IMG/VR virus record: IMGVR_UViG_2571042445_000002
DNA: 64,000 nucleotides
Reading direction: 5' to 3' (one strand)
Source of the DNA: a virus
Lineage: Duplodnaviria; Heunggongvirae; Uroviricota; Caudoviricetes
The notes below the pieces were generated by a model. The model did not search any database. It was not told where the DNA came from and saw nothing but the letters and a program-made list of their open reading frames with translations. Shown one piece after another: positions 9,015 to 50,492 of this stretch. Numbering within the stretch: position 1 is the stretch's first letter; each line of letters begins with the position of its first letter. The translations under genes and the position numbers were made by a program.

Positions 9015-9621
9015 GTCTAATTATGTTCTTCTTAATTATGATGAGTTAAACGAAAAGGGGCTGGCAAAACTCGTCAAAGAAATCGGTAAAGGAGGCTACA
9101 AGATAGCGAGGGTGATCCCCGCCAGTAATGGCAGGAAGAAAGACGGGATCATGACGCGCACGTTTACCCTTATCGGAATCGATGAGCAGACGATGGACGT
9201 TCAGGTTAATGATACTGGTGATATTTCTGGTGTAAAACTGAACGGAAAAATTGTTCCTTTCAAGCCAGTTAAAACGCTGATGGCTTTAGGGCAATCACTG
9301 GCTGCTTTATTTAATAAAGGCGCATCATCATTTCAGAAATCATTGGCGCGTAAGTTAGCTCGTGCGGCGAAAGATATTGATGATGGGAATAAGAAAATAA
9401 AAGGCGTTAAGTCCAATGCGCAGAAACTAGCAGAGGCAAAGGAATCTCGCGATGCGATCCGCGAGGATATTGAAAGGGCCAAAGAAAAATTAAATCAGGT
9501 GCAAGGTAATTCAGACCGCGCAACAAGAGAAACTGAAATCATTAGAACCGAGATGGCGCAGGAACTGGCGAAAACTCGCGTATTGAAAGAAGAAATAGCG
9601 CGCCTGGAGGAAGATGCATGA
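9004..9621 (+). CDS. coiled-coil virion-associated protein (P1 Hdf-like position)
   Basis: ATG at 9004 six nt after AAGGAG; coiled-coil rich; overlaps next gene (ATGA). Confidence 0.3.
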   Translation: MSNKSNYVLLNYDELNEKGLAKLVKEIGKGGYKIARVIPASNGRKKDGIMTRTFTLIGIDEQTMDVQVNDTGDISGVKLNGKIVPFKPVKTLMALGQSLAALFNKGASSFQKSLARKLARAAKDIDDGNKKIKGVKSNAQKLAEAKESRDAIREDIERAKEKLNQVQGNSDRATRETEIIRTEMAQELAKTRVLKEEIARLEEDA

Positions 9622-11570
9622 TAAAGAAACCTATTCGAATAAATATCCAGTCCACTTTTGCAGATACGCTCACTGGATATACGCCTAATCGTTGGGTGGC
9701 GGAGGATATCACCGAGGATGATTTACTTATCGAGCCTGCGACGCTGGAAGATATCGAGCTGGCCTATATGGGCAACGAAATTTTGGTAACTACCAATGAG
9801 GCAATGTTCGAAGCTATAACCACAACAAAATTGCGGTTAGCGCAAACAATGCGAGCATTTGTCCGGGCGCTTAATCGCGGCCTGAATGGCACTGACATTG
9901 CTGCGGGTACGGATGAGGCAGGTGAATATGAAGACGGACGTAATAGTATCGGTGGGGCAATCATTGGGCGCGTGCGCCGGGTTGCTAATATCCCTGTTGT
10001 AACAGCACAAATACCTCTAACCGATGGACAAACGACAAGCATAATTTTCCATTCTCCAACCGCAGACGGCACAAGAATTAAAGGGGATGACGAGCTGGTT
10101 GCGTTTCAGTTTCTTCTTAACAAAAGAAACGTTACGCATGTTGTTGCGCCAATCGGTGGGCGTGATGTATCTCTGAGCCAGGTGTGTCAGGCGCTTTCTA
10201 ACCTCATTGAGCGTAACAGTGCAAAATTCAAAAAAGCAAAGGAGCGCCAGGACAAAATGAAGGCTGATATTGAGGGGTATCTCAATGAAGCCGACAAGCT
10301 GGCAGAAGAACGTTCTGTGCTGATTGAGCAGGTTGAAGACGCACAGCGGGGGCTGGCAGAGAAACGCTCAACACTCAATGATATGCAGAATAAATTAGAC
10401 GCACAAAAAGCCCTTAACGCGGAATTGCAGGCTAAGCGCGATAATTTATTGTCAGCTAAGAGCCAAGGAACTAAAGAGCGAGCCTTCAATGATCAACTGC
10501 GACACATAAAACATAATCTTGCTACAGAAGGCCAAACAACGCTGGATAATGGTGCTGTAGTTAAGTATGTCACGTCAGGCAGTGATAGCTTTGTCACGAT
10601 TGAGGCACCAGAAGGCAATTTCAGTATTGATGTCAGTGCTGTTAAAGGTGGGAGTTCAGCGGACGCTGCAACCAAATTACTTAAAGCCTATCGTGAACAT
10701 AATGCTGATCAATACAAAGTGGATGTGTTGCCGGGCCAGCCTGAGCCAACTGATCAGCCGCAGCCTGAACAGGAGCCACAACCAGCATCACATCCTGATC
10801 CCCTGGAGGTTGGTAAATATCGCTATGCGCTCCAATCTCGCCCGGCGGGTGTTGGTGCGGTTCCTGAAGGAAATAAAGCTGTACTTGACCGTCCTGATCA
10901 GGCTGATCCGTATTACGAATATGCTCGTCACGGAATCATTACGTATGACCGCAAACTGACAGATGAAGAAGTCAGTCAGTACGAGTTGCTATATCTCCCT
11001 GGTGACGATGAATTGAAAGAGATTGCAGGCGAATTGGTTGCGTCCAGTATGTCGAACCATATTGATGGCTACGTTGATCTGTTTGGAAGCGACTTGAAAA
11101 CCTTTAAGGCGCAGATAAAAATCCTCTTCCGCAAAGCATTTCCTAACGTCGCTTATCCACTTGGAGATGGGGAGAACCTTTTTATAATGGATATCTATAA
11201 CGCGCTTCAGAATCAATCAGAAGTAGTCGAAGCTGAACAGACATTAGATCAGGCGCCGGAAGCAGTACAAGAACCAGAACCTGAGTCTGAACCTGAATCC
11301 CCCCAAGAGTCTGATACAGGTTCAGATGGGCCAGTAGTTAGTGAGGCTGATCAGGAGGCGGACAGTGCGCTGGAATATCTGAAATCCGTGCCGTTGCAGT
11401 TTACGTCCCGTGATTTGACGGTGATTAGAGCGGAGTTTGATCGCATTCAGGAGGCAGCTAATGTTCTTATCAACGCAGGTCGATATGATGAGAACGAGTC
11501 ACTTGTTGGTGCGGCAGCCGATCACCTGATCAACATTCTGGCAGAGATACAACAAGGGGGCGTGTGGTGA
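9618..11570 (+). CDS. DarA-like head-associated antirestriction protein (putative)
   Basis: 650 aa (P1 DarA is about 639 aa as I recall) in the lysis-hdf-darA position; central coiled coil, acidic PEPE-rich linkers. Confidence 0.35.
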   Translation: MIKKPIRINIQSTFADTLTGYTPNRWVAEDITEDDLLIEPATLEDIELAYMGNEILVTTNEAMFEAITTTKLRLAQTMRAFVRALNRGLNGTDIAAGTDEAGEYEDGRNSIGGAIIGRVRRVANIPVVTAQIPLTDGQTTSIIFHSPTADGTRIKGDDELVAFQFLLNKRNVTHVVAPIGGRDVSLSQVCQALSNLIERNSAKFKKAKERQDKMKADIEGYLNEADKLAEERSVLIEQVEDAQRGLAEKRSTLNDMQNKLDAQKALNAELQAKRDNLLSAKSQGTKERAFNDQLRHIKHNLATEGQTTLDNGAVVKYVTSGSDSFVTIEAPEGNFSIDVSAVKGGSSADAATKLLKAYREHNADQYKVDVLPGQPEPTDQPQPEQEPQPASHPDPLEVGKYRYALQSRPAGVGAVPEGNKAVLDRPDQADPYYEYARHGIITYDRKLTDEEVSQYELLYLPGDDELKEIAGELVASSMSNHIDGYVDLFGSDLKTFKAQIKILFRKAFPNVAYPLGDGENLFIMDIYNALQNQSEVVEAEQTLDQAPEAVQEPEPESEPESPQESDTGSDGPVVSEADQEADSALEYLKSVPLQFTSRDLTVIRAEFDRIQEAANVLINAGRYDENESLVGAAADHLINILAEIQQGGVW

Positions 11571-12026: not shown

Positions 12027-13412
12027 GTGACTCAAAACGTAACATCAGCACTTCTGGCCGCAGCGAACATTGAGGGGGTTATCGCTGTGGTGTCATCTCT
12101 TGAAAAGCAAGAGACGAAGTTGGGGCGTAGCAGCTATGTCGTCACCAGCAAAGGCGACGAAGTTAAAACAGCGTTCAAGGTTATTGATGCCAAAAAGCTC
12201 ATCATTTCTAACAACCTGGACGGAAGTATAAATCCGTCATTTCCGGAGGAACTCCAGCCTCGCGATCGCACCCGACTGTCAAGTAAGCTCCAGGTTAACC
12301 GTATCGCCGCCAATTTACGCCCGGCACAACTCACTGATTCGGGTATGAGTAGTCATGGTTCCCCGATTGTTGGTCCGGATAATGTCGTTGAGTCTGGTAA
12401 TGGTCGAAGCATGGGAATCTGGCGTGCTTATGAACAAGGGCAGGCTGAAGATTACCGACAATATCTTATCGATCACGCTAAAGAGTTTGGCCTTAATCCC
12501 GAAGACGTCAGGGCAATGGTGATGCCTGTACTGGTTCGCGAGCGCCTCACTGACGTTGATCGTGCTCAATTTGCACGCGACTCAAACATCAGCGATCTGC
12601 AAGAGATGGCTGCAAGTGAGAAAGCGTATGCGGATGCGCAATTTCTCACTGAGAGCGTCATGGCGCTATTTAATCCTTCAGATGATGGAAATCTACTGGC
12701 GCGGTCCAATGATGCGTTTATTCGTGCGTTTTTGCACGAAATAGGTGATACCGCGACGGCAGGTTTGCTTACAGCCGATGGACGTCCAACGAAACAGCTT
12801 ATCGATCGCATTCAGAATGCGATTTTTGCCAAAGCCTATAAGGATGAGCGACTTGTTCGGCTTGTGGCGGAAGAACCGGATCCGGAAATGCGCAATATCC
12901 TGACCGCGCTTAATACAGCGGCCAGTGACTTTGCGCAAATGCAGTCGATTTCTGGCGATGCACATCATGATGCTGTAACTGGTCTGGTTGATGGTATAGA
13001 GCAGGTGAACGGTCTGGATAAACAGGCTATAGCAGCACTCCAGGACGCGATTAACCTTGTTCGTGAAGCCAAAGACAACGGTCAGGCAGTGGAAGAGGTG
13101 ATAGCCCAGCGCGGACTCTTCGGTGATAGCACGCCGGAAGCTGAGGCGTTGGCGCTATTCATCGTGGCAAATAATCGAAGCGCGAAGCGCATGGGGGCTG
13201 CATTCAAAAAAATGGCACAAAAAATCAACGACGAACTGATTCATAAACAGCAGGCGTTGGGCGATATGTTCGGCGGTGGAGATGTCGATCTACGTAGTAT
13301 TTTGACCGCTGTTTCTAATGAGATTGAACTGGAACATGGAGAGGGGAAAGGGCTTAACTTCACGATGTTCGAAGCCAAAACAGAACAAAGCGATTTTGGG
13401 CTGGAAACCTGA
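12027..13412 (+). CDS. hypothetical protein (DdrB-like position)
   Basis: 461 aa, GTG start with AAAGGTGG RBS; last gene of the operon before a terminator. Confidence 0.3.
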   Translation: MTQNVTSALLAAANIEGVIAVVSSLEKQETKLGRSSYVVTSKGDEVKTAFKVIDAKKLIISNNLDGSINPSFPEELQPRDRTRLSSKLQVNRIAANLRPAQLTDSGMSSHGSPIVGPDNVVESGNGRSMGIWRAYEQGQAEDYRQYLIDHAKEFGLNPEDVRAMVMPVLVRERLTDVDRAQFARDSNISDLQEMAASEKAYADAQFLTESVMALFNPSDDGNLLARSNDAFIRAFLHEIGDTATAGLLTADGRPTKQLIDRIQNAIFAKAYKDERLVRLVAEEPDPEMRNILTALNTAASDFAQMQSISGDAHHDAVTGLVDGIEQVNGLDKQAIAALQDAINLVREAKDNGQAVEEVIAQRGLFGDSTPEAEALALFIVANNRSAKRMGAAFKKMAQKINDELIHKQQALGDMFGGGDVDLRSILTAVSNEIELEHGEGKGLNFTMFEAKTEQSDFGLET

Positions 13413-14363: not shown

Positions 14364-14400
14364 AAGCTGCCACGAAATCGGAAACCTTTTGCGGTGAATC

Positions 14401-16086: not shown

Positions 16087-16099
16087 CCGGAGGGAAATA

Positions 16100-17098: not shown

Positions 17099-17111
17099 GC
17101 TAAAAGCTAGC

Positions 17112-17128
17112 TTAATTTTCTAACACAG
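17112..17128. promoter_or_regulatory. operator-like motif TTAATTTTCTAACA
   Basis: member of the dispersed 14-bp motif family. Confidence 0.5.
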
Positions 17129-17215
17129 TGTGTTTTTATACACTGTTGATCCGACGGCACGTGATCGAGTAGGATCGCGGTCACTGCTCCGGTAGCGACT
17201 GCCAAAAAAAGCAAA

Positions 17216-17237
17216 AGCCGCTGAGTAGCGGCTTTTG
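17216..17237 (+). terminator. rho-independent terminator candidate
   Basis: agccgct-gagt-agcggct then TTTTGGG. Confidence 0.5.
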
Positions 17238-20516: not shown

Positions 20517-21014
20517 ATGAAAAAAGCAATATTAGCGACTATTGTTTGTGCATTTGCATTATCAGGATGCGCTCCGGTTCAGACATACAACAAGCCTCAG
20601 CAAGTAAAACAGTTTGTTAAACGCCCAGCATTCCCTGTAGAGGAATATCAGGCATTGCCGAAAAAAGGCACAGGTAAGGTTAAGGGGGAATTATTTGGAG
20701 TAACTCGCGGAGGGGATGTGAAGATTGGTGCTGGCTCCAATATCATACTGCGTCCGTATACTTCATATATCAAAAATACCCCCAAAATTGATTACGACAC
20801 TCAGACCTTAGAAATAATCGACGGCAGGGTTGCGGAATATGACAGAACTGTCCTGACTGATGCTCAAGGCAAATTTGAGTTCGAAAACGTACCACCAGGC
20901 CAGTATGAAGTGATTGGTTCGTTCAGTTGGTATGCTGGAAATTTCCCGCAAATCGTTCTTCTGAACAAAATCATTACCGTTAAGAACGGTGATGTTATCC
21001 AGGTTCAACCATGA
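20517..21014 (+). CDS. lipoprotein with carboxypeptidase-regulatory-like beta domain
   Basis: MKKAILATIVCAFALSGC signal peptide and lipobox; DAQGKFEFENVPPGQYEV motif. Confidence 0.55.
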   Translation: MKKAILATIVCAFALSGCAPVQTYNKPQQVKQFVKRPAFPVEEYQALPKKGTGKVKGELFGVTRGGDVKIGAGSNIILRPYTSYIKNTPKIDYDTQTLEIIDGRVAEYDRTVLTDAQGKFEFENVPPGQYEVIGSFSWYAGNFPQIVLLNKIITVKNGDVIQVQP

Positions 21015-21126
21015 TCCCCTTTTGAGTAAGAACCTTCGGGGTGTGATTCTGCGAAATTAACACACTCCATACCCTCTCAAACCGTACCGCTTAAGGCGGA
21101 TTTAACGGTTTTGAGGGGGGCTTCCT

Positions 21127-24100
21127 TTGGACAAAATAATTGATTCAATTAGCCAGGCCACCAGCATTGGGGCGCTGATTGAAATTGTTAGTCGGTTGCA
21201 TAAACCGCGAGCTGTAGTGACCTTTGGCGTTAAGAAAGTCGATGGCGTCAGTATTCAGAAAACACGCCGGGCAGCAAACAACGCCGCAGTAAATCTTCTT
21301 AATTCCCTTCCGCCTGGCTTCGATGGGGCGAAATTAACTGACGAACAGCGCCAGATTCTTGCCGGGTATACCGGTGAAGGCGGCCTGACAGATGGTGAGG
21401 GCAGCCAATACGAATACTATACGCCACAGTTTATGGCAGAAGGTATATGGGATCTCTTCGGCGACTACGGTATTGATAGCGGTCACGTACTGGAACCGTC
21501 AGCAGGCACAGGTATTTTCCAGGAGACAAAACGGCAGGGCATGATAATGACCAGTGCCGAACTGTCTCCGATCTCCGGTCGAATAAACCAGCTTTTGCAC
21601 CCGGAAGATGATGTGAATATCGGGGCGTTTGAGGCGCTGGCGGCGAAAGATGCAATGTATGACCACGCAGTTGGTAACGTACCGTTTGGCGAAGGGCGTT
21701 CCGGCGTCGCCGGGCTTGATCCGGCATATGCAAACGAGAAGAACGTTGGCAATTATTTTGTGCTGCGCACGATCGACAAGGTTAAGCCTGGTGGACTAAT
21801 TGTATTGGTGGTGCCGAATGGCATGACCGATGGTACGAAATACAAAAAATTGCGCGATAAAGTCAGCCGTAAAGCGGAATTTTTGGGCGCGCATCGTATG
21901 CCTTCTGGTACGTTCAGCGAATCCGGTACAGATACCGTGGTGGACGTATGGGTATTGCGTAAACACCCGGAAACCTTCCTGGAGATGATCCCCGACACGG
22001 ATGATGCAACGCTCAAATCGGCAAACGTCCTTTGGGATACCTTCCTCAAAGGGAAATGGTTTACAACCGAAGGGAAGCGATTTGTTTACGGCGACATGGA
22101 ACGCACCAGCTTCCGCAATACCCTGGTGGTGAAAAAGGACGGTCGTGTATCCAATGAGTCGATGAAAACCGCGTTATCATGCCGCTTTGAAAGCCGTATT
22201 AATTGGGATTTGCTCGGAGTAACTACCCAGGCATGGCAGGGCGCAAAAGTAGGGGATAAGCGTCTTGTAGGCGGTATCTGGCATGAGTTTGATGGCCTGA
22301 AATGGGTTAAGGACACGACAACCAAATCCTCCGCGCTTGATGTAAGTCGATATGGTGTTTCGACGTTTGGCGATCTGCAGATCGCGTTCCAGTCAACAAA
22401 CGGGATTCTGGCTTTGTCATGGGACCAGATATCGGCGATCGCGTCCGACTATCCATCGGTTGTCAGTGATGAAGTGGCAGCAATGATTCGCTTTGCTGGC
22501 AAACAGCGAGAAAAAGACAGGGAGCGCGTTATGCGCGGTGCGTTGATAGGGCAGTTGATCAACAAGGCACTTGATTTGCGTAACCTGGGGGTGAACGTTG
22601 ATGACAAACTGGCAGATGCATCCCGCCTGGCGGCAGCAGAAGTTGCGAAGTATGGACCACCGCACGCGATTAAGCTGAATGGGCTTGCTGAAGCTGGCGC
22701 TAAAAACTGGATGACGTTCACTGGCAATGTGAAACAGGATGGTTCCACTTCTGACCTTCTGGCAGGGCGACTTGATGTAACGGATGGTGCTGCCGGTATT
22801 GACTTTACACGTCCGGAACAAGTGATAGCACATCTTTTCAGTGATGTAGCCCTTAATCCTATAACGCTGGGCGACTTTCGTGAGGCGTTTGCTGGTGAAC
22901 TGCCAGAGGACGACGACGCGGCCCTTGAATACCTGGCGAAATTTGATGATATCGCTATTGATGGGTATGGCTGCCTGCTGCCGATGGACCGCGCCACCAG
23001 CGGCGATATTGTAACCAAAACAGCATTGCTGGTGGGCTGGCGTGATGCATCAACAGGTGAGCAGAAAGCGAACTTTGAGCGTCAGTTGGCGAAAATCGAA
23101 GAGAAACGCATTTTCACGCCACTAAATAAAGTCACCGTTAATCTGAACGCCCGCTGGCTGGATCGCCGCTTGATAAAAGAGTTCCTGGCAGAGCAGGGCT
23201 ATGACGAGTTTAAGTACACTGAACCTGATCTGAAGGTCGTCGATGGCATTCTGGTATCTCCGGACGATTACGAAGGTAAGGACGGGGTATTTACCGGCTA
23301 TCAGCTACGAACCGTAAACGGCAAAAACGGGAATGAGTTCAAGAAGGCCAACAATAAAGACGGCTTCCTGAACCAGTTAGAAAACTACCTGAACGGTGTT
23401 AAACCGCGTGGGCAGAACGCTAACGAGTACCTGGATAAAATTGCTCAACTGGAAGTTAGCTTTAACGACTGGTTACGCACCCACCCGCAGGCGGATCAGA
23501 TAGCCCGTGACTATAACGACGCATTCAATGGCTTCATTCCGTTCACGCACTCTAACGCACCGCTTGGCCTGGAAGGGATTAGTGGAAAGCGCATTCCTCT
23601 GACTTATCAGAATGAAGAAGTTCGTCGCTTGTCAGAAGATGGGCGCGGCATCATGGGATTTGGTACCGGGCTGGGTAAAACCACGACCGCGCTTGCGCTT
23701 GAGGCGTATAACTTCGAAACAGGTCGTACTAAACGCACGTGTATTGTTGTTCCGAAGGCGGTTTATCAGAACTGGTATCACGAGGCACAGAGCTTCTACA
23801 GTGCTGATGCCTTCGCCAATATGATGTTTATCGGTCTGGATGAAGTTCGTGATGACAGCGGAAATATTCTGACCGCTCCGGTGCTTGATGAAAATGGCGA
23901 ACCCCGCCTCGACAGTAACGGGCAGCCTCTTACCAGAAATGTTGTGAAAGAGTCCGCCAGCGCCGTTATCGTTCAGCGCATGAACATGATCCCGTCGTCA
24001 AATTGGCGAACGGTCATCATGACAAAAGAACAATTCGCGTCTATCCCGCTACGAGAAAAAACCATCGAGGAGAACTCACAGCAAGCTGTCTTTAATGCTG

Positions 24101-27100
24101 TGGAAATGGGGCGTCTTGACCTGGCGTCTGGTAAACACCGTGATGCGCAGAAGAAGAACAAGATTAAGGATCAGGCCGCGAATACCGGTACAACGAAGAA
24201 GCAGAATATCCCGTACTTTGAGGATATGAACTTCGATAGCGTGATAGCCGACGAGGGGCATAACTACCGCAACTCCTTTAATGCCGGGCGTGAAGCGGGA
24301 CAACTGGCATATTTGCCTAACCCGGCAGTATCCAAGATGGCCCGCGACATGGCTGTAAAAGCTGCGTACATGATGAAACGCAACAACGGGCGTGGTGTAG
24401 TCATGCTGACGGCAACACCGCTGGTGAACAGTCCGATTGATGCCTTCAACATGCTGTCTACTGTCATTCCGCAGGAAGAGTGGATGCGCATGGGCATCAT
24501 TACGCCTGATGATTTCGTTCGTGTGTTTGGTAAAACAGCCACAGTTCAGGTCCAGAAAATTTCCGGGGAAGTGGAAGAGAAGCAGGGGCTGGTTGGCTTC
24601 CAGAACCTTGATGGCCTGCGTGGTATTTTCCATCGCTGGACTACTCTGAAGACTGCTGCGGACGTCGGGGCGACGGTTAAAATCCCTGATATTGTCGAGA
24701 ATACCTTGCAGATCCCGATGACAGGGGAGCAGGAGGCTGCTTATGAAGAGCTTCGTAAGCGTGCACAGGAGTTAAGTAGTAAAGATGCGCTGACGGTTGA
24801 TGAAAACGGGCATATCACAAACGAAAAACCGGATGATTTCATCTTCTCCATCATCCGCGACATGGATAAGGTTGCTATAGATCCGGATCTGTATGCCAGT
24901 GCGATTACATTCCAGTTCCCCGTTGAGCTTGCAGACAAGGTAAAAGCTATTGCTGATGCCCTGCCAAAAGTAGCTGGCGGTAAAGTGGCAGATGATGCAG
25001 ACGAGGCCGAAGAAGACGGCGCTGGTGGGCTGGTTAGTACGCGCACCAGTAAGGTAGTGAAGACCACCTTTAGTGAACATCCGGCGCATGTTGAAATACG
25101 TGCCAGCATTGAACTGGAAGCTGAAATACTGAAGGCCATTGCTGCCGCCGGGATTGATATGCAGCAGGTATCACACCCAATCCCGCCGAAGTATGCCGCG
25201 CTGATCGAAAACCTTCGTGAAGGTCTGAAGAACGGTAAACAAATTGTCTTCATTGATGAAAAAGCCCAGCACCAGAAGCTGCGCCGTATTATCGCCAGTG
25301 CACTGCAAATGCCGGAGCAGGAGATAGGCATTATCAATGCGACGACCGTTAGCCAGGCTGGCGGCATCAAGCTGAAGAAGGTGAATAAGCCGACTGAACC
25401 TACTCCGAATAAAAATGGTGAATACAAAGAAGGGGCATGGGAAACCTACTACAGCAAACTTGCCCAATATGAGGATTATCTCTCAGCTAAAAATGATGCT
25501 GGCCTTGAGGGTATGGAAGGCATTGCCGCCGACTATAACGAAGGGCGCACGCGCATAATTATCTGTAACAAGAAGGCTGAAGTAGGTATTAACCTGCATA
25601 TCGGGACAACCGATATCCACCACCTGACACTACCCTGGACACCAGCCAGTATCGACCAACGAAATGGGCGCGGTGCGCGCGTAGGTTCACCGCAAGAGAA
25701 GGTCAATGTTCACTACTATTGTGGCAAAGGCACATTCGACGACTTCCGTCTGGATACGCTGAAACGTAAGAAAGACTGGATCAAGATGGTGATGACCTCC
25801 GACATGTCAGAGATCGCCAATGGTGATGCGGATGATGCTGATGAACGCGCCATTATGCTGGCGGCAAACCCGGAAGAACGCCGCGCAATCATGGCTCGCC
25901 AGGCGCAAGAGCGTGAAGAACGTCTGAAACTGAAAGCACAGCGCGAGGCCAACAATGCTCTCGATATCTACCTGAAAGCGGCAAACGCCGCTGGAAAAGA
26001 TATCGGCATGATGGAGACAGAACTGAAAAGCGCGATGGAACAGATAGAGTATTACCAGCGAAATCTTGACGACCTGATAAAAGCGGGTACGAACAGGAAT
26101 GGGCAAAAATTCGCGCTTGAGCAGTTGAGTAGCTACAGAAAACGTGCGCGGGTGCTGCGGTTTGCGATCACCAGGGCAAAAGACGCGGATACCATAATGA
26201 AACGCTCTCGTGGTGATGTGGAGCGCGCTATTAAGTCTGGTGTGCTGGATATCAGTATCGATGTTATTCAGAACCCACAGGAATATATGCGCACTGACAA
26301 GAATATCCTGTTGCATAAAGGTAGTTATTACCGTGCAGTCATTGATGATCGCGAAACAACAGCGATTGTCCGGGTGGAAAAAATTGACGGTGAAAAAGCA
26401 CAATACCTCTGCCGTATCGCCTGGCTGGATAGAGCAAGTCGTTACGCTCGAGCACCGGGGTCAATCGTTACATTGCCGTTTGACTCTGTGATTGAAGCGG
26501 TAACTTTTGAAGAGGGGGTAGCTGAATCGCGCGCAACGGCTGCGCGTGGTGTTCAGTGCCACCAGCTATCAACAATACTTACTCGCGATCAGTTCTATGA
26601 TGCTATTCGCAATGGGGTAATGAATGTTATTGCTGGTAAACCTGGTAATGCATGGGGCGGTGGGTCAGCTATTAAATACTGGGCATATCGCACAGATGAT
26701 GGTCAGATCGCGCTGTCATCGGCCTATGATGGCGTGATAGGCCAAAAAATCGGGCGAGCATCGGATATAGCACCTGAACGATGGATATATCCAGATGGCA
26801 ACGATGAGGCGCTGAAGCGTGAAGTGGCAAAAATACAAGCCAGTGATAACCCGCTGAATATCGTGGACGGCGAGGGATTCCTCCAGGCATTGTATGGGTA
26901 TGATTACATCCAGGGAATGCAGGCATGGGGCGCACAGGCAACGATGGATGATGTTGTCCAGGAGTTCGAAAACTGGATGGCTGGGCGTGGTCTGTCAGGT
27001 CGTTCGCTTAATAAAGTCACTTCTGAAGATATTCTTAGCTTGTTCCGCAAACCGTCCGGAGAAGGTCTGGAATCATTCTGGAGGACCGTGCTGGCATACC

Positions 27101-27963
27101 GTTTATTCAAGGGCAGAATGAAAGCCTTTAGCAATATCGATGATATTGAACGGATGTTTAATCAGGTCAAGATCGCCAAAATTAAGACGAAGATCGAAAA
27201 AACACGTTCTGCGCTGGTGGCCTGGCGCGATGCATTGTTTGAGCAATATAAATCACTCAGTGATGCAGATGGATGGGCGGCATTGGAACAGTTGGCGAAT
27301 AATGGGGTAGATGGAGCGAAACTCGCCATAGTCCAGGCTGATAACCCCCTGGAATCACCGGCAGCACAGTGGATTAAGGTGGGGGCTGTCATCAATGCAT
27401 TTGATGAAAAACACATTAGTAAGGACGATTTTGCTGATGCTGTTTCTGTTAATCGCCTGGTAGAAATGGCTACCCGCCGCGCCCGTGAGTTGAAAGACGG
27501 TGACTATGTGAATGAGTTGCCGGATGCGCTCAAATCAGCAACGTGGCAAGACTATGTATCGCTGAAAAACGGCGGGGCCACCGAATCAGAGATCGCGGAA
27601 AGGCTTGAACAGGCTGAAAGCAAAAGAGAAGAGCAGGCGGCAGTGGCTGAAGCCAGAGCTGATGAAGCGGCGAATGATGACTATATCATTGTGGTTAATG
27701 ATAAGCCGATTCGCGCTAAGGCGCGTGTTCGCGGGCGCTGGTGGAGTGTCAGCGAGGACGTCGGTGCGGTTTATCTCATTGCCGACCAACCAGGTTCCTC
27801 GACAATACGGAACGCCAAAGACGCGATTAAGAAGATTGGCGGGCGTTTCTGGAATTTTGAAGCAAACCCGGTTGCTGATGTGAACTTTGACCGTCCTGCA
27901 TGGATGGTATCTACGCGTTACTCGGTAGATGAACTGCGTAAAATAATCGCCGATGCGGCCTAA
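21127..27963 (+). CDS. darB: DarB-like giant methyltransferase-helicase, putative antirestriction protein
   Basis: 2278 aa, TTG start after GAGGGGGG; MTase-like motifs LEPSAGTGIF and VGNVPFG; SF2 helicase motifs GFGTGLGKTTT, DEGHNYRN, QRNGRGARVG; size near P1 DarB. Confidence 0.65.
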   Translation: MDKIIDSISQATSIGALIEIVSRLHKPRAVVTFGVKKVDGVSIQKTRRAANNAAVNLLNSLPPGFDGAKLTDEQRQILAGYTGEGGLTDGEGSQYEYYTPQFMAEGIWDLFGDYGIDSGHVLEPSAGTGIFQETKRQGMIMTSAELSPISGRINQLLHPEDDVNIGAFEALAAKDAMYDHAVGNVPFGEGRSGVAGLDPAYANEKNVGNYFVLRTIDKVKPGGLIVLVVPNGMTDGTKYKKLRDKVSRKAEFLGAHRMPSGTFSESGTDTVVDVWVLRKHPETFLEMIPDTDDATLKSANVLWDTFLKGKWFTTEGKRFVYGDMERTSFRNTLVVKKDGRVSNESMKTALSCRFESRINWDLLGVTTQAWQGAKVGDKRLVGGIWHEFDGLKWVKDTTTKSSALDVSRYGVSTFGDLQIAFQSTNGILALSWDQISAIASDYPSVVSDEVAAMIRFAGKQREKDRERVMRGALIGQLINKALDLRNLGVNVDDKLADASRLAAAEVAKYGPPHAIKLNGLAEAGAKNWMTFTGNVKQDGSTSDLLAGRLDVTDGAAGIDFTRPEQVIAHLFSDVALNPITLGDFREAFAGELPEDDDAALEYLAKFDDIAIDGYGCLLPMDRATSGDIVTKTALLVGWRDASTGEQKANFERQLAKIEEKRIFTPLNKVTVNLNARWLDRRLIKEFLAEQGYDEFKYTEPDLKVVDGILVSPDDYEGKDGVFTGYQLRTVNGKNGNEFKKANNKDGFLNQLENYLNGVKPRGQNANEYLDKIAQLEVSFNDWLRTHPQADQIARDYNDAFNGFIPFTHSNAPLGLEGISGKRIPLTYQNEEVRRLSEDGRGIMGFGTGLGKTTTALALEAYNFETGRTKRTCIVVPKAVYQNWYHEAQSFYSADAFANMMFIGLDEVRDDSGNILTAPVLDENGEPRLDSNGQPLTRNVVKESASAVIVQRMNMIPSSNWRTVIMTKEQFASIPLREKTIEENSQQAVFNAVEMGRLDLASGKHRDAQKKNKIKDQAANTGTTKKQNIPYFEDMNFDSVIADEGHNYRNSFNAGREAGQLAYLPNPAVSKMARDMAVKAAYMMKRNNGRGVVMLTATPLVNSPIDAFNMLSTVIPQEEWMRMGIITPDDFVRVFGKTATVQVQKISGEVEEKQGLVGFQNLDGLRGIFHRWTTLKTAADVGATVKIPDIVENTLQIPMTGEQEAAYEELRKRAQELSSKDALTVDENGHITNEKPDDFIFSIIRDMDKVAIDPDLYASAITFQFPVELADKVKAIADALPKVAGGKVADDADEAEEDGAGGLVSTRTSKVVKTTFSEHPAHVEIRASIELEAEILKAIAAAGIDMQQVSHPIPPKYAALIENLREGLKNGKQIVFIDEKAQHQKLRRIIASALQMPEQEIGIINATTVSQAGGIKLKKVNKPTEPTPNKNGEYKEGAWETYYSKLAQYEDYLSAKNDAGLEGMEGIAADYNEGRTRIIICNKKAEVGINLHIGTTDIHHLTLPWTPASIDQRNGRGARVGSPQEKVNVHYYCGKGTFDDFRLDTLKRKKDWIKMVMTSDMSEIANGDADDADERAIMLAANPEERRAIMARQAQEREERLKLKAQREANNALDIYLKAANAAGKDIGMMETELKSAMEQIEYYQRNLDDLIKAGTNRNGQKFALEQLSSYRKRARVLRFAITRAKDADTIMKRSRGDVERAIKSGVLDISIDVIQNPQEYMRTDKNILLHKGSYYRAVIDDRETTAIVRVEKIDGEKAQYLCRIAWLDRASRYARAPGSIVTLPFDSVIEAVTFEEGVAESRATAARGVQCHQLSTILTRDQFYDAIRNGVMNVIAGKPGNAWGGGSAIKYWAYRTDDGQIALSSAYDGVIGQKIGRASDIAPERWIYPDGNDEALKREVAKIQASDNPLNIVDGEGFLQALYGYDYIQGMQAWGAQATMDDVVQEFENWMAGRGLSGRSLNKVTSEDILSLFRKPSGEGLESFWRTVLAYRLFKGRMKAFSNIDDIERMFNQVKIAKIKTKIEKTRSALVAWRDALFEQYKSLSDADGWAALEQLANNGVDGAKLAIVQADNPLESPAAQWIKVGAVINAFDEKHISKDDFADAVSVNRLVEMATRRARELKDGDYVNELPDALKSATWQDYVSLKNGGATESEIAERLEQAESKREEQAAVAEARADEAANDDYIIVVNDKPIRAKARVRGRWWSVSEDVGAVYLIADQPGSSTIRNAKDAIKKIGGRFWNFEANPVADVNFDRPAWMVSTRYSVDELRKIIADAA

Positions 27964-27999: not shown

Positions 28000-28434
28000 A
28001 TGACGACATTAATTGACACTGTAAAACCGACGGAATCCTACCTTGAGGACATTTTGCCGCAGGCGCTCAATGGCAGGAGTGAAGAGGCGTTTCTGGATGC
28101 ATATCTGGATGGCATGGCGGAAAGGCTGAAAAGAGATCCACAGCTTTATCATCTTTATGGGCCGTGGTGGCCTGCGCTTAAAACGTTATTGCTGGAGCGT
28201 GGCGACATATCATTTGGACAAGTTGTAGATAGTGATGTGGCAGAAATCTACAAAATGAGTCGCCCGGCGCTTACGGTTTTAGCCGGGCATCTGTATTCGA
28301 GCGATCGCCTGGAAAATGACGCGGTATACAATCCCGTTCATGCTCTGGAAGTCGCGCCTTATGCTGATGATACAGAGCCATACGTATACACAAGTTACGA
28401 CGAGTCTATAGAGAAATATCGAATCGTGGGGTAG
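28000..28434 (+). CDS. hypothetical protein
   Basis: 144-aa ORF 36 bp after darB-like stop. Confidence 0.35.
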   Translation: MTTLIDTVKPTESYLEDILPQALNGRSEEAFLDAYLDGMAERLKRDPQLYHLYGPWWPALKTLLLERGDISFGQVVDSDVAEIYKMSRPALTVLAGHLYSSDRLENDAVYNPVHALEVAPYADDTEPYVYTSYDESIEKYRIVG

Positions 28435-28872: not shown

Positions 28873-28888
28873 GTGTTAGAAATTTGAT
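28873..28888. promoter_or_regulatory. operator-like motif TGTGTTAGAAATTTGA overlapping a start codon
   Basis: motif family member overlapping the VRR-NUC gene start. Confidence 0.5.
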
Positions 28889-29330
28889 GCGAAGACGCAG
28901 GCATCATAGTGCGTATTCTGAAATATCCCCGCACGCTGCTGCACTGAGAGAGTTAGAAAGAAATCCTGACTTATTAAAACGGAATTACGAACATTACGAA
29001 CAGGTTCGCGTTCTGGATTGGCTGTATCGCAACATGCGATACGTGTATGAGCACACACACTCAACACCGAACGGCGGCCTGAGAGGCAAAAGGACAGCCA
29101 TTAAGATGGTGGCAGAAGGTCAGAAGAAGGGCTATCCGGACCTTTCTATTGACCTTGCTCGTGGTGGGTATCACGGAATGCGCATTGAGATGAAGCACGG
29201 GAGAAACCGTCTGACTCCCGAACAGCTCGTCTGGATGACTCGCCTCACGGAAGCAGGCTATTACTGCTTTGAGGCGCGCAGTGCCGATGAAGCCATAAAA
29301 GCTATCACTGAATATGTAAATCTTGATTAA
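28887..29330 (+). CDS. VRR-NUC domain nuclease
   Basis: TPNGGLRGKR...GYPDLSIDL...RIEMKHGRNRLTPEQLVWMTRLTEAGYYC fits the VRR-NUC pattern. Confidence 0.5.
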   Translation: MRRRRHHSAYSEISPHAAALRELERNPDLLKRNYEHYEQVRVLDWLYRNMRYVYEHTHSTPNGGLRGKRTAIKMVAEGQKKGYPDLSIDLARGGYHGMRIEMKHGRNRLTPEQLVWMTRLTEAGYYCFEARSADEAIKAITEYVNLD

Positions 29331-32515: not shown

Positions 32516-32591
32516 TGATGGTGTAGCTCAGTGGTAGAGCAGTTGGCTGTTAACCAACTGGTCGGTGGTTCGAATCCACTCACCATCGCCA
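32516..32591 (+). tRNA. tRNA-Asn (anticodon GTT)
   Basis: 76 nt; acceptor gatggtg/caccatc, anticodon loop CTGTTAA, T-loop TTCGAAT, 3' CCA encoded. Confidence 0.85.
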
Positions 32592-32593
32592 AT

Positions 32594-32669
32594 GCCGGTT
32601 TAGCTCAGTTGGTAGAGCGCCTGCCTTGTAAGCAGGATGTCAGCGGTTCGAGTCCGTTAACCGGCACCA
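32594..32669 (+). tRNA. tRNA-Thr (anticodon TGT)
   Basis: 76 nt, 2 nt after tRNA-Asn; anticodon loop CTTGTAA; T-loop TTCGAGT; CCA encoded. Confidence 0.85.
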
Positions 32670-32671
32670 AC

Positions 32672-32760
32672 ACAACAGGTAAGGGTATTTTGCGACGTCG
32701 GAGATCGCCGAGCTTGGCAGAGGGTTCGAATCCCTACGAAGTACCCTTACCGTTGTGATG
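32672..32760 (+). ncRNA. tRNA-like hairpin element or pseudo-tRNA
   Basis: 15-bp stem acaacaggtaagggta/tacccttaccgttgt enclosing a T-arm-like GGTTCGAATCC; no full cloverleaf. Confidence 0.3.
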
Positions 32761-32857
32761 AATGCACAGGCTGATGTGCCGCAACTACAGTAGTGCGCGC
32801 TTTGCGGGGCTTGCTACAACCCTGTGTCGGAGTTCAGCACCGACCATCACAATCACT

Positions 32858-32944
32858 GGAGAGTAGGGAGCATGGTGCTCAAGCGGTCTTGAAAACCGTC
32901 CCATTGCGCAAGCGATGATGGTTCGATTCCATTACTCTCCGCCA
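32858..32944 (+). tRNA. tRNA-Ser-like (anticodon TGA), long variable arm, atypical D-arm
   Basis: acceptor ggagagt/actctcc, anticodon loop CTTGAAA, long variable arm, T-loop TTCGATT, CCA encoded. Confidence 0.5.
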
Positions 32945-33329: not shown

Positions 33330-33338
33330 CAGTAATCT

Positions 33339-44408: not shown

Positions 44409-45971
44409 ATGAAAATGACAAGTATTCAACAACGTGCAGAGCTTCATCGCCAGATCTGGCAAATTGCTAACGATGTCAGGGGGTCAGTCGATGGATGGGA
44501 TTTTAAGCAATACGTTCTGGGCGCACTTTTCTACCGTTTTATCAGCGAAAATTTTTCCAGCTATATTGAAGCCGGTGATGACAGTATCTGTTATGCGAAA
44601 CTGGATGACAGCGTAATTACTGATGACATTAAAGACGATGCCATCAAAACTAAAGGCTACTTCATCTACCCCAGTCAGCTTTTCTGCAACGTAGCTGCGA
44701 AAGCAAATACCAATGACAGACTGAATGCGGATTTAAACAGCATCTTCGTTGCTATCGAAAGTTCTGCTTACGGTTACCCTTCAGAAGCTGACATCAAAGG
44801 TTTGTTTGCTGATTTCGATACTACCAGTAACCGCCTGGGTAACACCGTTAAAGATAAAAATGCCCGCCTGGCTGCGGTTCTGAAAGGGGTTGAAGGGCTA
44901 AAACTTGGTGACTTCCACGAACATCAGATTGACCTGTTCGGTGACGCCTATGAGTTCCTGATTTCTAACTATGCGGCGAATGCTGGTAAGTCAGGCGGCG
45001 AGTTCTTTACACCGCAGCACGTCTCTAAGCTGATTGCACAACTGGCTATGCACGGGCAGACCCACGTTAACAAAATCTACGACCCGGCAGCAGGTTCCGG
45101 TTCGCTGTTGTTGCAAGCTAAAAAACAGTTTGATGACCATATCATCGAAGAAGGTTTTTTTGGTCAGGAAATCAACCATACGACCTATAACCTGGCGCGT
45201 ATGAACATGTTTTTGCACAACATCAACTACGACAAGTTTGATATCAAGCTGGGCAATACGCTGACTGAACCGCACTTCAGAGATGAAAAACCGTTTGATG
45301 CCATCGTTTCTAACCCGCCGTATTCGGTGAAATGGATTGGCAGCGATGACCCGACGCTGATTAACGATGAACGTTTTGCCCCGGCTGGCGTTCTGGCCCC
45401 CAAATCCAAAGCTGACTTTGCGTTTGTATTACATGCACTGAACTATCTTTCTGCCAAAGGTCGTGCTGCGATTGTCTGCTTCCCAGGCATTTTTTACCGT
45501 GGCGGCGCGGAGCAGAAAATCCGTCAGTATCTGGTTGATAATAACTATGTCGAAACCGTGATTTCACTGGCACCGAACCTGTTCTTTGGCACCACCATTG
45601 CCGTAAACATTCTGGTGTTGTCTAAACATAAAACAGATACAAAAGTTCAGTTTATTGATGCCAGCGAACTGTTCAAAAAAGAGACTAACAACAATATCCT
45701 GACCGATGCCCATATCGAACAGATTATGCAGGTATTTGCCAGCAAGGAAGATGTTGCTCATCTGGCGAAATCTGTTGCGTTTGAGACTGTTGTCGCGAAT
45801 GACTATAACCTGTCGGTGAGCAGCTATGTGGAAGCGAAAGATAATCGCGAAATTATCGATATCGCTGAGCTGAATGCGGAACTGAAAACCACGGTCAGCA
45901 AAATCGACCAGTTGCGCAAAGATATTGATGCGATTGTGGCTGAAATTGAAGGCTGCGAGGTGCAGAAATGA
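44409..45971 (+). CDS. hsdM: Type I restriction-modification methyltransferase subunit
   Basis: 520 aa; SAM motif [10 protein letters not shown] and catalytic SNPPYSVKW. Confidence 0.85.
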
Positions 45972-47254
45972 GCGAGTTGAGTTATCTGGAAAAATTGCTG
46001 GATGGGGTTGAGGTTAAGTGGTTGCCATTGGGGAACGTCGCTGAAATTTATGGTGGCCTAACAGGAAAGAGTAAATCTGATTTTGAGAACGGTAATGCCA
46101 GATATGTTTCATACAAAAAAATATTTGGTTATTTAGATGTGAATGATTACCCTACTGATTATGTATATATTAGTGAGGGAGAAAGACAAAATAAAGTAAG
46201 ATATGGGGATGTTTTATTTACTGGCTCATCTGAAATTGCTGATGAAGCAGGCATGTCCTCCGCCGTTACAGTACACTTCGATGAATCAGTGTATTTAAAC
46301 AGCTTTTCTTTTGGTATCAGATTCAGTAACAGCATAAAAATCAAACCGGAGTTCGCAAAATACCTTTTTCGAACCCATTTCATGCGCTCTGAAATAGCAA
46401 AAACAGCTAGTGGTGTAACACGCTTTAATATTTCAAAATCAAGATTTAAAAAAATACTGGTTCCTATCATTTGTCCTAATGATCCAGAAAAATCCCTTGC
46501 CATCCAGTCTGAAATCGTTCGGATTCTGGATAAATTTACTGAGCTTACAGCTGAGCTTACAGCTGAGCTTACAGCTGAGCTTACCATGCGTAAAAAACAG
46601 TACAACTACTATCTTGACCAGTCGCTAAGTTTTAAAGAGGGTGAGGTCGAGTTGAAAACGTTGGGAGAGATGGGGACACTTATAAGAGGCAAACGCTTTG
46701 TGAAATCCGACATAATTCCCAAGGGAGTACCGTGTATTCACTACGGTGAAATGTATACCCATTACCGCATCTGGGCGGATAAAGCAAAATCGTATATCTC
46801 TGTTGAATTAGCGTCCAAGTTAAGAAAAGCCTCATGCGGAGATGTTGTTTTTGTCTCTGCGGGTGAAACAATTGCAGATATTGGTCGTGGAACAGCCTGG
46901 TTAGGCGATGAAGATGTTGTTATTCATGACGCATGTTTTTTCTATAAAAGTTCATTGAACCCCAAGTATGTGGCCTACTTCTCAAGAACAAATTTCTTCC
47001 ACGATCAGATTAAAAAATCGATCTCTTCGGGGAAAATTTCTGCCATCAATGCCAAAGGCTTTGAAAAAGTGATTATTCCAGTTCCTTCACCAGAAGAACA
47101 AGCACGCATCGTTGCTTTCTTGGACAAATTCGACACATTGACAAGCTCCATCACCGAAGGCTTACCCCGTGAAATAGAACTACGCCAGAAGCAGTACGAG
47201 TACTATCGTGATTTACTGTTCAGTTTCCCAAAACCTGAAACTGTCAGTAATTAA
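45968..47254 (+). CDS. hsdS: Type I restriction-modification specificity subunit
   Basis: 428 aa; two AT-rich target-recognition domains around a central conserved region with TAEL repeats; ATGA overlap with hsdM. Confidence 0.8.
46541..46585 (+). repeat. 12-bp tandem repeat (gagcttacagct, 3.75 copies) encoding (TAEL)n in HsdS
   Basis: direct read of the sequence; protein [22 protein letters not shown]. Confidence 0.9.
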
Positions 47255-47375
47255 TTGACCATTGCTACCGACCGGGCCACCTTAACACCCGGTCAGTATA
47301 TAGACTATTTTTTACACGCTGGAAGTCACCATTAACGCCCTTCCGGCCCTTGCCAGACGGCACAAAGGATGCGCT

Positions 47376-50300
47376 ATGACTCATCAAACACACACCATTG
47401 CTGAATCCAATAACTTTATCGTTCTTGATAAATACATCAAAGCTGAGCAAACAGGCGACAGCTATCAGAGCGAATCGGACCTGGAACGTGAACTGATTCA
47501 GGACCTGCAAAATCAGGGCTATGAATTTATATCCGTAAAATCACAGTCAGCGATGCTGGCCAACGTTCGGGAACAGCTTCAGAGCCTCAATGGTGTGATG
47601 TTTAATGACAGAGAGTGGCGGCGTTTCACGGAGCAGTATCTGGACAACCCGAGCGATGGCATTCTGGATAAGACCCGTAAAATCCATATCGACTATATTT
47701 GCGACTTTATTTTTGATGACGGGCGTCTTGAAAATATCTATCTGATAGATAAAAAGAATCTCATGCGCAATAAGGTGCAGATTATCCAGCAGTTTGAACA
47801 GACGGGTTCTCATGCTAACCGTTATGACGTCACGATCCTGGTTAATGGTTTACCGCTGGTGCAAATCGAACTAAAAAAACGCGGGGTGGCGATTCGTGAG
47901 GCTTTCAACCAGATACATCGTTACAGTAAAGAGAGTTTTAACAGCGAAAATTCCCTGTTTAAGTATCTGCAACTGTTTGTCATTTCTAACGGCACCGATA
48001 CCCGTTACTTTGCCAACACCACAAAGCGCGATAAAAACAGTTTTGACTTCACAATGAACTGGGCGAAATCAGACAACACGCTGATTAAAGACCTCAAAGA
48101 CTTTACCGCTACCTTTTTCCAGAAACATACTCTGCTGAATGTTCTGGTGAACTACAGCGTTTTTGACAGTAGTCAGACGCTACTGGTGATGCGACCGTAC
48201 CAGATTGCAGCTACCGAACGAATTTTATGGAAAATCAACAGTTCCTATAAAGCGAAAAACTGGTCCACTCCCGAAAGTGGTGGCTTTATCTGGCACACCA
48301 CCGGTTCCGGTAAAACACTGACCAGCTTTAAAGCCGCGCGTCTGGCAACAGAACTGGACTTTATTGATAAAGTCTTCTTCGTGGTCGACAGAAAAGACCT
48401 CGATTACCAGACGATGAAGGAATATCAGCGTTTTTCGCCAGACAGCGTCAACGGCTCGGAAAATACCGCAGGACTTAAACGAAATCTGGATAAGGACGAT
48501 AACAAAATTATCGTCACCACTATTCAGAAACTTAATAACCTGATGAAAGCAGAAAGCGACCTGCCTGTATACAATCAGCAAGTGGTGTTTATATTTGATG
48601 AATGTCACCGCAGCCAGTTTGGAGAAGCACAGAAAAACCTGAAGAAGAAATTCAAACGCTATTATCAGTTTGGTTTTACCGGCACACCTATTTTCCCGGA
48701 AAACGCCTTAGGCTCAGAAACAACCGCCAGCGTATTTGGCCGTGAATTGCATTCATATGTTATTACCGATGCGATTCGTGACGAAAAAGTGCTCAAATTC
48801 AAGGTGGACTACAACGATGTGCGGCCACAGTTTAAGTCTTTAGAGACAGAAACTGACGAGAAAAAACTGAGTGCGGCTGAAAATCAGCAGGCGTTTCTTC
48901 ATCCCATGCGTATTCAGGAAATCACGCAATATATCCTGAACAACTTCCGCCAGAAAACCCACCGTACTTTCCCTGGTTCCAAAGGTTTTAATGCCATGCT
49001 GGCAGTAAGCAGCGTGGATGCTGCAAAAGCCTATTATGCGACGTTTAAACGGTTACAAGAGGAAGCCGCTAATAAATCGGCTACCTATAAACCGCTGCGT
49101 ATTGCGACAATCTTCTCCTTTGCCGCCAATGAAGAACAAAATGCCATTGGTGAAATTTCCGATGAAACTTTTGATACCAGCGCAATGGACAGCAGTGCTA
49201 AAGAGTTTCTGGACGCTGCAATTCGTGAATATAACAGCCATTTTAAAACTAACTTTAGCACCGACAGTAACGGTTTTCAGAACTACTATCGTGATTTAGC
49301 CCAGCGGGTTAAAAATCAGGATATCGATCTGCTAATTGTCGTGGGGATGTTCTTAACCGGCTTCGATGCTCCAACATTGAACACGCTATTCGTCGATAAA
49401 AACTTACGTTATCACGGCCTGATGCAGGCATTTTCCCGCACTAACCGCATTTATGACGCCACTAAAACCTTCGGTAATATCGTCACTTTCCGGGATCTGG
49501 AACGCTCAACTATTGATGCCATAACGCTGTTTGGTGACAAAAACACCAAAAATGTGGTGTTAGAAAAGAGTTATACAGAGTATATGGAAGGCTTTACTGA
49601 TGCTGCTACAGGTGAAGCTAAACGCGGCTTCATGACAGTAGTTTCAGAACTGGAACAACGGTTCCCTGACCCTACCAGTATTGAAAGTGAAAAAGAGAAG
49701 AAAGACTTCGTTAAACTGTTTGGCGAATACCTGCGTGCCGAGAACATCCTGCAAAACTATGATGAATTTGCCACGCTAAAAGCCCTGCAACAAATCGATC
49801 TTAGCGATCCTGTTGCGGTAGAAAAATTCAAAGCAGAACATTATGTGGATGATGAAAAGTTCGCTGAATTGCAAACAATTCGTCTCCCTGCTGATCGCAA
49901 GATTCAGGATTATCGTTCTGCCTATAACGATATTCGCGACTGGCAGCGCCGTGAGAAAGAAGCTGAGAAAAAAGAGAAATCAACCACTGACTGGGATGAC
50001 GTAGTTTTTGAGGTCGATTTGCTGAAGTCTCAGGAAATAAACCTGGATTATATCCTTGGACTGATTTTCGAACACAACAGACAAAATAAAGGCAAGGGCG
50101 AAATGATCGAAGAGGTCAAACGCTTAATTCGTTCAAGTCTAGGGAACCGTGCTAAAGAGGGCCTGGTGGTCGATTTTATTCAGCAAACGAACCTGGATGA
50201 TTTACCGGACAAAGCCAGCATCATTGACGCATTCTTTACGTTTGCTCAACGCGAACAGAAACGTGAAGCAGAAGCATTGATAAAAGAAGAAAATCTCAAT

Positions 50301-50492
50301 GAAGAGGCGGCGAAACGCTATATTCGCACATCTTTAAAACGCGAATACGCCACCGAAAATGGTACAGGATTAAATGATACATTACCAAAACTTAGTCCGT
50401 TAAATCCGCAATATAAAACGAAAAAACAGACGGTTTTCCAGAAAATCGTCTCGTTTATTGAGAAGTTTAAAGGCGTAGGCGGAAAAATATAG
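47376..50492 (+). CDS. hsdR: Type I restriction-modification endonuclease subunit
   Basis: 1038 aa; Walker [15 protein letters not shown]-box [12 protein letters not shown]2 helicase layout. Confidence 0.85.

Follow-up and report, generated by a model that had tools for sequence, protein, structure and literature searches.

A DarB orthologue of probable antirestriction function in a 64-kb viral stretch related to the phage-plasmid D6

The Dar proteins of phage P1 are reported to protect against several Type I restriction systems and against BREX, and this protection acts strictly in cis on the DNA packaged in the virion (PMC12707154). One of them, DarB, was identified as a head protein by LC-MS/MS, with about 40-45 copies per virion, and is the last Dar component to be loaded, a step for which Hdf and DarA are needed and in which DdrB and Ulx help (PMC9024508, PMC12810830). 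The N-terminal 30 amino acids (aa) of P1 DarB suffice to target a reporter to the capsid (PMC9024508). P1 without DarB is sensitive to EcoB and EcoK, according to Iida 1987 and Piya 2017 as these are cited in PMC12707154 and PMC9024508. Here a stretch of 64,000 nucleotides from a virus of the Caudoviricetes (IMG/VR record IMGVR_UViG_2571042445_000002; hereafter the window) was analysed, and one large open reading frame (ORF) in it was found to be an orthologue of P1 darB, for which an antirestriction role is very probable by homology to P1.

21127..27963, + strand: darB, encoding a 2278-aa protein with LPD36, methyltransferase (MTase) and SWI2/SNF2 parts; TTG start, uninterrupted ORF; orthologue of P1 DarB and of D6 orf15

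A first-pass annotation of the window, made without database searches, had placed a 2278-aa gene at 21127-27963, and the ORF was located exactly there, on the + strand and with a TTG start. The chance of an open frame of 2278 codons is (61/64)^2278, or about e^-109, so the ORF is real because of its length. The TTG start was supported since the BLASTP alignment with P1 DarB starts at residue 1 of the window protein, the identical start was chosen for orf15 in the phage D6 annotation, and a Shine-Dalgarno sequence, GAGGGGGG, lies ahead of it at 21113-21120. An inverted repeat, AACCGTACCGCTTAAGGCGGATTTAACGGTT, was observed at 21080-21111 (+), directly 5' of this ribosome-binding site, and is kept in D6.

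P1 DarB (AAQ13985.1, 2255 aa) and the window protein were 43% identical in one collinear BLASTP alignment, covering aa 1-1935 of the window protein and aa 1-1924 of P1 DarB, while the extreme C-terminus gave a weak match (27%, E 0.02). Counted per 100 residues, the identity was 48-55% in the N-terminal MTase part, 29-45% at aa 300-800, 47-68% in the N-lobe of the ATPase and 55-57% in its C-lobe. The motifs occupied equivalent positions in both proteins, namely GEGG of LPD36 (83), YYTP (97), LEPSAGTG (122) and NVPF (184), and then GTGLGKT (846), DEGH (1042), TAT (1095) and QRNGRGAR (1511) of the ATPase, and Pfam gave the two proteins the same domain set (N6_Mtase, SNF2-rel_dom, ResIII and Helicase_C). 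In family alignments of 38 DarB homologues, the residues of the LPD36, MTase and SNF2 motifs, including the unusual Val of NVPF, were invariant or nearly so, with invariant columns along the whole length. The PHROGs collection returned a full-length match to phrog_1685 and a match to phrog_10089, labelled 'DarB-like antirestriction'.

The gene had been described as DarB-like from its N-terminal MTase motifs and DExH core, with an alignment to P1 DarB suggested as a check. This description was borne out, with YYTP, LEPSAGTG, NVPF, GTGLGKT and DEGH all present, Pfam in agreement, and collinearity over 1935 of the 2278 residues including non-catalytic regions. Nor was the similarity one of generic helicase motifs, as it spans aa 1-1935 and the whole Dar set and the darB-ulx pair are kept as well. 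The identity to P1 was similar from gene to gene (DarB 43%, portal 49%, protease 41%, DarA 41%, Hdf 40%, DdrA 37% and Ulx 46%); the divergence of DarB has kept pace with that of the structural genes, which argues for vertical descent.

The protein could be divided into six parts:

21127..21216, + strand: aa 1-30, positional counterpart of the capsid-targeting signal of P1 DarB; putative function, inferred from position
21244..21411, + strand: helical domain resembling LPD36, aa ~40-95, which carries GEGG at aa 83-86 as its GxG[GAS] motif
21415..22011, + strand: predicted gamma-class N6-adenine DNA MTase domain, aa ~97-295, from motifs and a fold match
22012..23583, + strand: conserved middle region, aa ~296-819, 29-45% identical to P1 and with many residues invariant in the 38 homologues
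23584..25926, + strand: SWI2/SNF2-type ATPase, aa ~820-1600, with a long insert at aa ~1200-1460, from Pfam and motifs
25924..27960, + strand: fast-evolving C-terminal module, aa 1600-2278, which occurs in DarB proteins only

The first 30 residues were modelled as helices, with a predicted local distance difference test score (pLDDT) of about 60-65. The GxG[GAS] motif of LPD36 was defined by Iyer et al. 2017 (PMC5512222); G83, G85 and G86 were invariant in the 38 homologues, the P1 GEGG stands at aa 80-83, and helices were predicted around the motif. In the MTase domain N184, P186 and F187 were invariant and V185 nearly so, and the Pfam N6_Mtase match, at 20.1 bits, fell marginally short of its cut-off of 20.4. 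An AlphaFold2 (AF2) model of aa 1-830 (pLDDT 81) matched HsdM (7eew, 2ar0, 2y7c), M.TaqI, BsaXI, PacII and LlaBIII through its MTase core only, with E values from 1e-8 to 1e-5. The middle region was modelled mostly at pLDDT 80-93, and the fold search with the same model found nothing for it, since nothing beyond the MTase core was matched. The ATPase was the best-conserved part relative to P1 DarB, up to 68%, with 49 bits to SNF2-rel_dom and with ResIII and Helicase_C above their cut-offs; its Walker A, DExH, motif III and motif VI sequences are all intact. When the full protein was searched by sequence against the Protein Data Bank (PDB), only marginal matches to HsdM and INO80 were returned.

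The C-terminal module found nothing outside DarB proteins in an exhaustive HMMER search, and no recognisable relatives in a fold search; a word-indexed homologue search with this region returned only fragments of near-identical proteins. Among close relatives it also diverges faster than the rest, with 75% identity against 94% for the homologue P0023, and yet all 38 homologues share invariant positions throughout it. Precomputed Pfam matches of the DarB homologues P0013-P0132 include PF28555 ('Helicase_dom') and PF28554.

Selection on the gene was purifying. The ratio of nonsynonymous to synonymous substitution rates (dN/dS) was 0.07-0.08 for the whole gene, in comparisons with D6 and pYU39_89. 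It was 0.00-0.05 over the MTase domain together with both SNF2 lobes, 0.00-0.03 for the lobes alone (aa 820-1200 and 1460-1600), 0.06-0.07 for the ATPase insert (aa 1200-1460) and 0.09-0.22 for the C-terminus, and these regional values gave no sign of positive selection in any part of darB. Both the MTase core and the SNF2 core are intact, and it is there that constraint is strongest.

The partners of DarB in P1 are also encoded in the window, most of them in an operon lydA-lydB-hdf-darA-ddrA-ddrB at 8242-13412, of which each product is 34-64% identical to its P1 counterpart:

8242-8568: lydA, 41% identical to P1
8568-9014: lydB, 34% identical to P1
8980..9621, + strand: hdf, with Pfam DarA_N and phrog_1620 'Hdf-like antirestriction'; 40% identical to P1 Hdf
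9618..11570, + strand: darA, with Pfam DarA_N and DarA_C; 41% identical to P1 DarA over 632 aa
11564..11935, + strand: ddrA, with phrog_1855 'DdrA-like anti-restriction'; 37% identical to P1 DdrA
12027..13412, + strand: ddrB, short form of 461 aa, with Pfam ddrB-ParB; 64% identical to P1 DdrB aa 2-442
28000..28434, + strand: ulx, a probable DarB-packaging helper by P1 homology, with phrog_1629 'Ulx-like anti-restriction'; 46% identical to P1 Ulx

The start of ulx lies 36 bp past the darB stop, and the darB-ulx pair also exists in P1 and in Aeromonas and Xenorhabdus relatives, whose DarB proteins are 40-47% identical. The C-terminal half of DdrB, annotated in P1 as a possible metallopeptidase, is absent from the window and from D6.

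The distance of about 8 kb between darB and the dar operon had been pointed out as a peculiarity. The distance itself was confirmed, at 7.7 kb from the ddrB end (13412), but it is no peculiarity, as P1 has a gap of about 7.3 kb (darB 10469-17236, ddrB 24542-27529) and darB likewise stands outside the darA operon in the Aeromonas and Xenorhabdus relatives. Judged from these gene orders, the separation is the ancestral arrangement. The orientation differs. In D6 and in the window prt-pro and darB point the same way, whereas the two are divergent in P1, Aeromonas and Xenorhabdus. Between prt-pro and darB, both D6 and the window carry repL, icd, an anti-repressor gene and a gene for a CHAP-domain hydrolase, and the window carries a lipoprotein gene in addition. 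A variable spot was observed between ddrB and the portal gene, with a HicB-like antitoxin ORF and an ORF without assigned function in the window (13524-13955 and 14193-14690, both on the - strand) and two different + strand ORFs in D6. In the closest plasmid, NZ_CP085065.1, a larger insert stands just upstream of this spot, between ddrA and ddrB, with TnpB, HicA, a helix-turn-helix (HTH) regulator and a DUF3944 gene.

The nearest described relative is Escherichia phage D6 (MF356679 / NC_050154), which among phage genomes matched darB by megablast with 97% nucleotide identity over 100% of its length, while the match of P1-type phages was limited to a stretch of 167 bp. The D6 orf15 (ASR76325.1) is annotated in GenBank as 'defense against restriction; similar to P1 gene darB', so the gene is already annotated as a darB homologue in the D6 genome record and the assignment is already known. 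The two proteins, both of 2278 aa, are 98% identical without gaps; 12 of the 42 aa differences fall within the first 95 residues. By blastn against D6 record bases 1-34119, the window from about 5000 to 39400 is collinear with D6 at 74-96% nucleotide identity. The neighbourhood of darB was matched at 99.9% in several E. coli plasmids of ~90-94 kb, and 392 plasmid records matched in all, mostly non-mobilizable plasmids of Escherichia and Salmonella. With these D6 and plasmid matches, the window is evidently a phage-plasmid, a plasmid prophage of the D6 type within the P1 supercluster, as judged by sequence comparison. A search for full-length homologues gave a continuum from 96% to 36% identity, made of proteins of 2200-2320 aa on contigs of 80-120 kb from Enterobacterales and Aeromonas, and the homologue cluster of the window protein has 4,384 members and that of P1 16,340.

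On the P1 model, the D6-type DarB would be made late and loaded into the prohead through its N-terminal targeting segment as the last Dar component, with Hdf and DarA required and Ulx and DdrB helping, and it would be ejected with the DNA. It would then shield the incoming genome or transduced DNA, strictly in cis, from the Type I enzymes of the new host. For this DarB may ride the entering duplex, and then methylate the DNA, or physically block or displace the translocating Type I complexes. A translocase-methylase action is suggested because the MTase and SWI2/SNF2 parts are retained and strongly constrained, and any specific biochemical step is put forward with far less confidence than the antirestriction role.

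Several points weigh against a P1-like function of this protein. To our knowledge, MTase activity has been demonstrated for no DarB, and motif IV reads NVPF instead of NPP[YF], with the Val shared by P1 and nearly invariant in the family. The C-terminal ~680 aa, from residue 1600 on, are 15-26% identical to P1 DarB, and therefore the target spectrum may differ. DdrB is half-length, corresponding to the N-terminal ParB-like half of the 995-aa DdrB of P1 and having the same form in D6, and this matters because DdrB is said to aid the loading of DarB in P1. A recognisable late promoter for darB was not found in searches for a P1-type box and a D6-type element. The first 30 residues share 5/30 identities with the P1 targeting signal, with the hydrophobic periodicity kept, and residues 6-10 of P1 DarB, MGVFR, reported to be critical (PMC9024508), correspond to DSISQ in the window protein. 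Co-evolution of the targeting segment with Hdf, DarA, DdrB and Ulx is plausible, since those proteins have diverged equally. Finally, packaging, ejection and antirestriction are ascribed to the D6-type DarB purely by homology.

For the late promoter, a motif search for the P1-type box (ACAAGTGAYT) gave no enrichment, and no copy near darB. An element 'GAAAT..AACA[AC]ACT..ATA..' was observed at 8188-8210, 14347-14369 and 21052-21078 (+), upstream of lydA, prt and darB, with the darB copy more diverged and the element kept in D6. It may be a candidate D6-type late-promoter box, analogous to the AACAAGTGA box of P1, which is a weak lead; motif searches with it were circular or gave results not above chance.

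Among other explanations, the one that survives best accepts a true DarB homologue, of which the D6 type counters other host defences than P1 does (for example Type IB, Type IC or BREX instead of EcoK and EcoB), as set by the C-terminal module. The contrast between 15-26% identity there and 40-68% in the rest speaks for this, as do the faster divergence of the C-terminus among close relatives (the 75% against 94% of P0023), its restriction to the DarB family, and the reported activity of Dar against several Type I systems and BREX (PMC12707154). On the other side, no positive selection was detected and the C-terminal dN/dS is 0.09-0.22, no fold that would hint at target binding could be recognised in the module, and its invariant positions in all 38 homologues are consistent with a structural role. 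It is improbable that the ~680-residue module is a specificity or adaptor part by which the D6-type DarB protects against other host systems than P1, possibly including BREX or the Type IC enzymes that enterobacterial plasmids commonly carry, and as a replacement for the P1-like antirestriction reading the idea is slightly less probable still. If it were true, DarB C-terminal types would partition the host ranges of phage-plasmids.

DarB could also be taken for a prophage defence protein, an MTase-helicase like those of restriction-modification (R-M) systems, of the Type ISP or DISARM DrmMI/DrmD kind, which would attack incoming DNA. The MTase and SNF2 pairing does occur in DISARM and Type ISP enzymes, there were weak matches to the models of DrmD, ZorD, DpdE and BrxHII, and LlaBIII was matched at the fold level. 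However, the NCBIfam scores were 45.3 bits for DrmD against a cut-off of 610 and 31.6 for DpdE against 500, and within the ATPase lobes the PADLOC matches span just 50-200 residues. Neither Pfam nor the sequence-only and fold searches made with the N- and C-terminal parts revealed a nuclease domain. The protein is orthologous over its full length to P1 DarB, which proteomics placed in the virion head (PMC9024508), and its gene forms a pair with ulx and is found together with the darA operon. A defence-system identity was thus rejected on the partial matches far below threshold, the nuclease result and the virion location of the P1 orthologue, and is very unlikely.

It is just as unlikely that the antirestriction linked to darB stems mainly from its DNA, through Chi and Type I sites that trigger ClpXP-dependent restriction alleviation. 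Plasmid-borne P1 darB DNA does alleviate EcoKI restriction without DarB protein via Chi and EcoKI sites (PMC11109961), and there are 7 Chi sites in the window darB and 38 in the window against 1.9 expected; but a DNA-level effect cannot account for a frame of 2278 codons in which purifying selection (dN/dS about 0.08) has kept the catalytic motifs invariant, the Chi enrichment is window-wide and not specific to darB, and PMC11109961 deals with an artefact of plasmids and leaves the phenotype of the phage darB deletion undisputed. The Chi sequence, GCTGGTGG, is ~20-fold over-represented in the window, its darB sites being 21158, 22994, 23028, 25021, 26559, 27213 and 27737. The same Chi enrichment exists in P1, with 11 Chi sites in P1 darB (PMC11109961).

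Besides the orthologue of P1 darB and its partners, the window carries other genes which had been mentioned together with it:

20517-21014, + strand: lipoprotein gene, 165 aa, ATG at 20517, with MKKAILATIVCAFALSGC and a classical lipobox (LSGC); phrog_14789 match
44409..50492, + strand: Type IC R-M cassette, outside Dar, made of hsdM (44409-45971), hsdS (45968-47254) and hsdR (47376-50492); Pfam

The order in which darB follows a lipoprotein gene was seen as described, with the ATG at 20517 and the lipobox in place. The lipoprotein has a weak CarboxypepD_reg or prealbumin-like C-terminal domain, and only its signal peptide resembles Cor. Its gene lies in an insertion of ~650 bp relative to D6 (20312->21053 in the window, 14838->14927 in the D6 locus), which is absent from D6 and from most D6-like plasmids and present in a few of the closest plasmids. 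The lipoprotein gene is accessory and stands outside Dar, and it may be a moron for surface modification or superinfection exclusion.

The Type IC cassette adjoins phd-doc (~43.6-44.3 kb). Its HsdR is essentially the HsdR of EcoR124I/II, with 2272 bits over the full length and Pfam EcoR124_C. HsdS has the Type IC framework: its conserved regions at the N-terminus, in the centre, with (TAEL)x3, and at the C-terminus match those of EcoR124II HsdS, and both target recognition domains (TRDs) differ. The hsdMSR genes are accordingly read as an R-M system of the EcoR124 family (Type IC), and its specificity is predicted to differ from that of EcoR124 because the two TRDs are unlike those of EcoR124. 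Plasmids of all mobility types carry the cassette, in 1,177 records and with breaks at hsdS, and it also occurs in a few P1-like phages.

The element does carry its own Type I system, as the first-pass annotation had said, with a complete hsdMSR at 44409-50492. That restriction and antirestriction genes stand together holds too, since both gene sets are present; as an oddity the point fell away, because P1 carries EcoP1I together with Dar and having both is normal. The resident R-M of P1 is the Type III EcoP1I (res/mod), next to darB-ulx-lxc, whereas the window has a Type IC system beside phd-doc. No conflict between Dar and the resident R-M is expected, since Dar acts only in cis on packaged DNA and the R-M works in the lysogen. 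In the literature, no paper linking Dar with Type IC enzymes was found.

Some further cargo was observed. The ORF at 33867-34442 (+) has a Tad2-like (Thoeris anti-defence 2) domain, PF11195 (E 4e-10), and the plasmid homologue of the ORF at 42084-42746 (+) is annotated as DUF2829; the two may be further counter-defence cargo. In the Xenorhabdus relative a Tad2-like gene lies near darB. Downstream of ulx, the ORF at 28884-29330 (+) encodes a VRR-NUC nuclease domain, and its D6 counterpart is annotated as pmgM-like. A tRNA cluster at 32517-33414 (+) comprises Asn(GTT), Thr(TGT), Ser(TGA) and Met(CAT), of which the D6 region examined annotates the first three only.

The value of these results lies mainly in annotation, and no new biology came from the window; the features thought unusual at first are, by sequence comparison, standard for P1-like phages. 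In hundreds of phage-plasmids of E. coli and Salmonella, RefSeq/PGAP calls the protein no more than 'SNF2-related protein' or 'DEAD/DEAH box helicase', so its antirestriction role could easily be missed. Clinical and livestock isolates often contain D6-type phage-plasmids, which, like the DNA transduced by them, would cross Type I barriers more easily with a working Dar system.

In comparison with known systems, the window DarB is like P1 DarB in having ulx directly downstream and NVPF as motif IV, and the main difference at the protein level is the diverged C-terminal ~340-680 aa. Phage D6 also has ulx and orf13 downstream of orf15; relative to it, the window adds the ~650-bp insertion with the lipoprotein gene just upstream of darB and the Type IC cassette, and no R-M is annotated in bases 1-84000 of the 91159-bp D6 record. 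DISARM DrmMI/DrmD and Type ISP enzymes (LlaBIII) share the combination of an N6-adenine MTase with a superfamily 2 (SF2)/SNF2 translocase acting on double-stranded DNA, but they are host defences with a nuclease or other effectors, whereas the window DarB stands in a phage context and no nuclease domain was found in it. The MTase-SWI2/SNF2 'dyad' polyvalent proteins (Iyer et al. 2017, PMC5512222) have the same order of LPD36 (GxGU), EcoKI/TaqI-like adenine MTase with a TP motif and SWI2/SNF2 ATPase. Compared with the giant polyvalent proteins of 3000-12000 aa (PMC5512222), the window DarB is of the compact P1 type, without their extra effector domains and with a DarB-specific C-terminal module.

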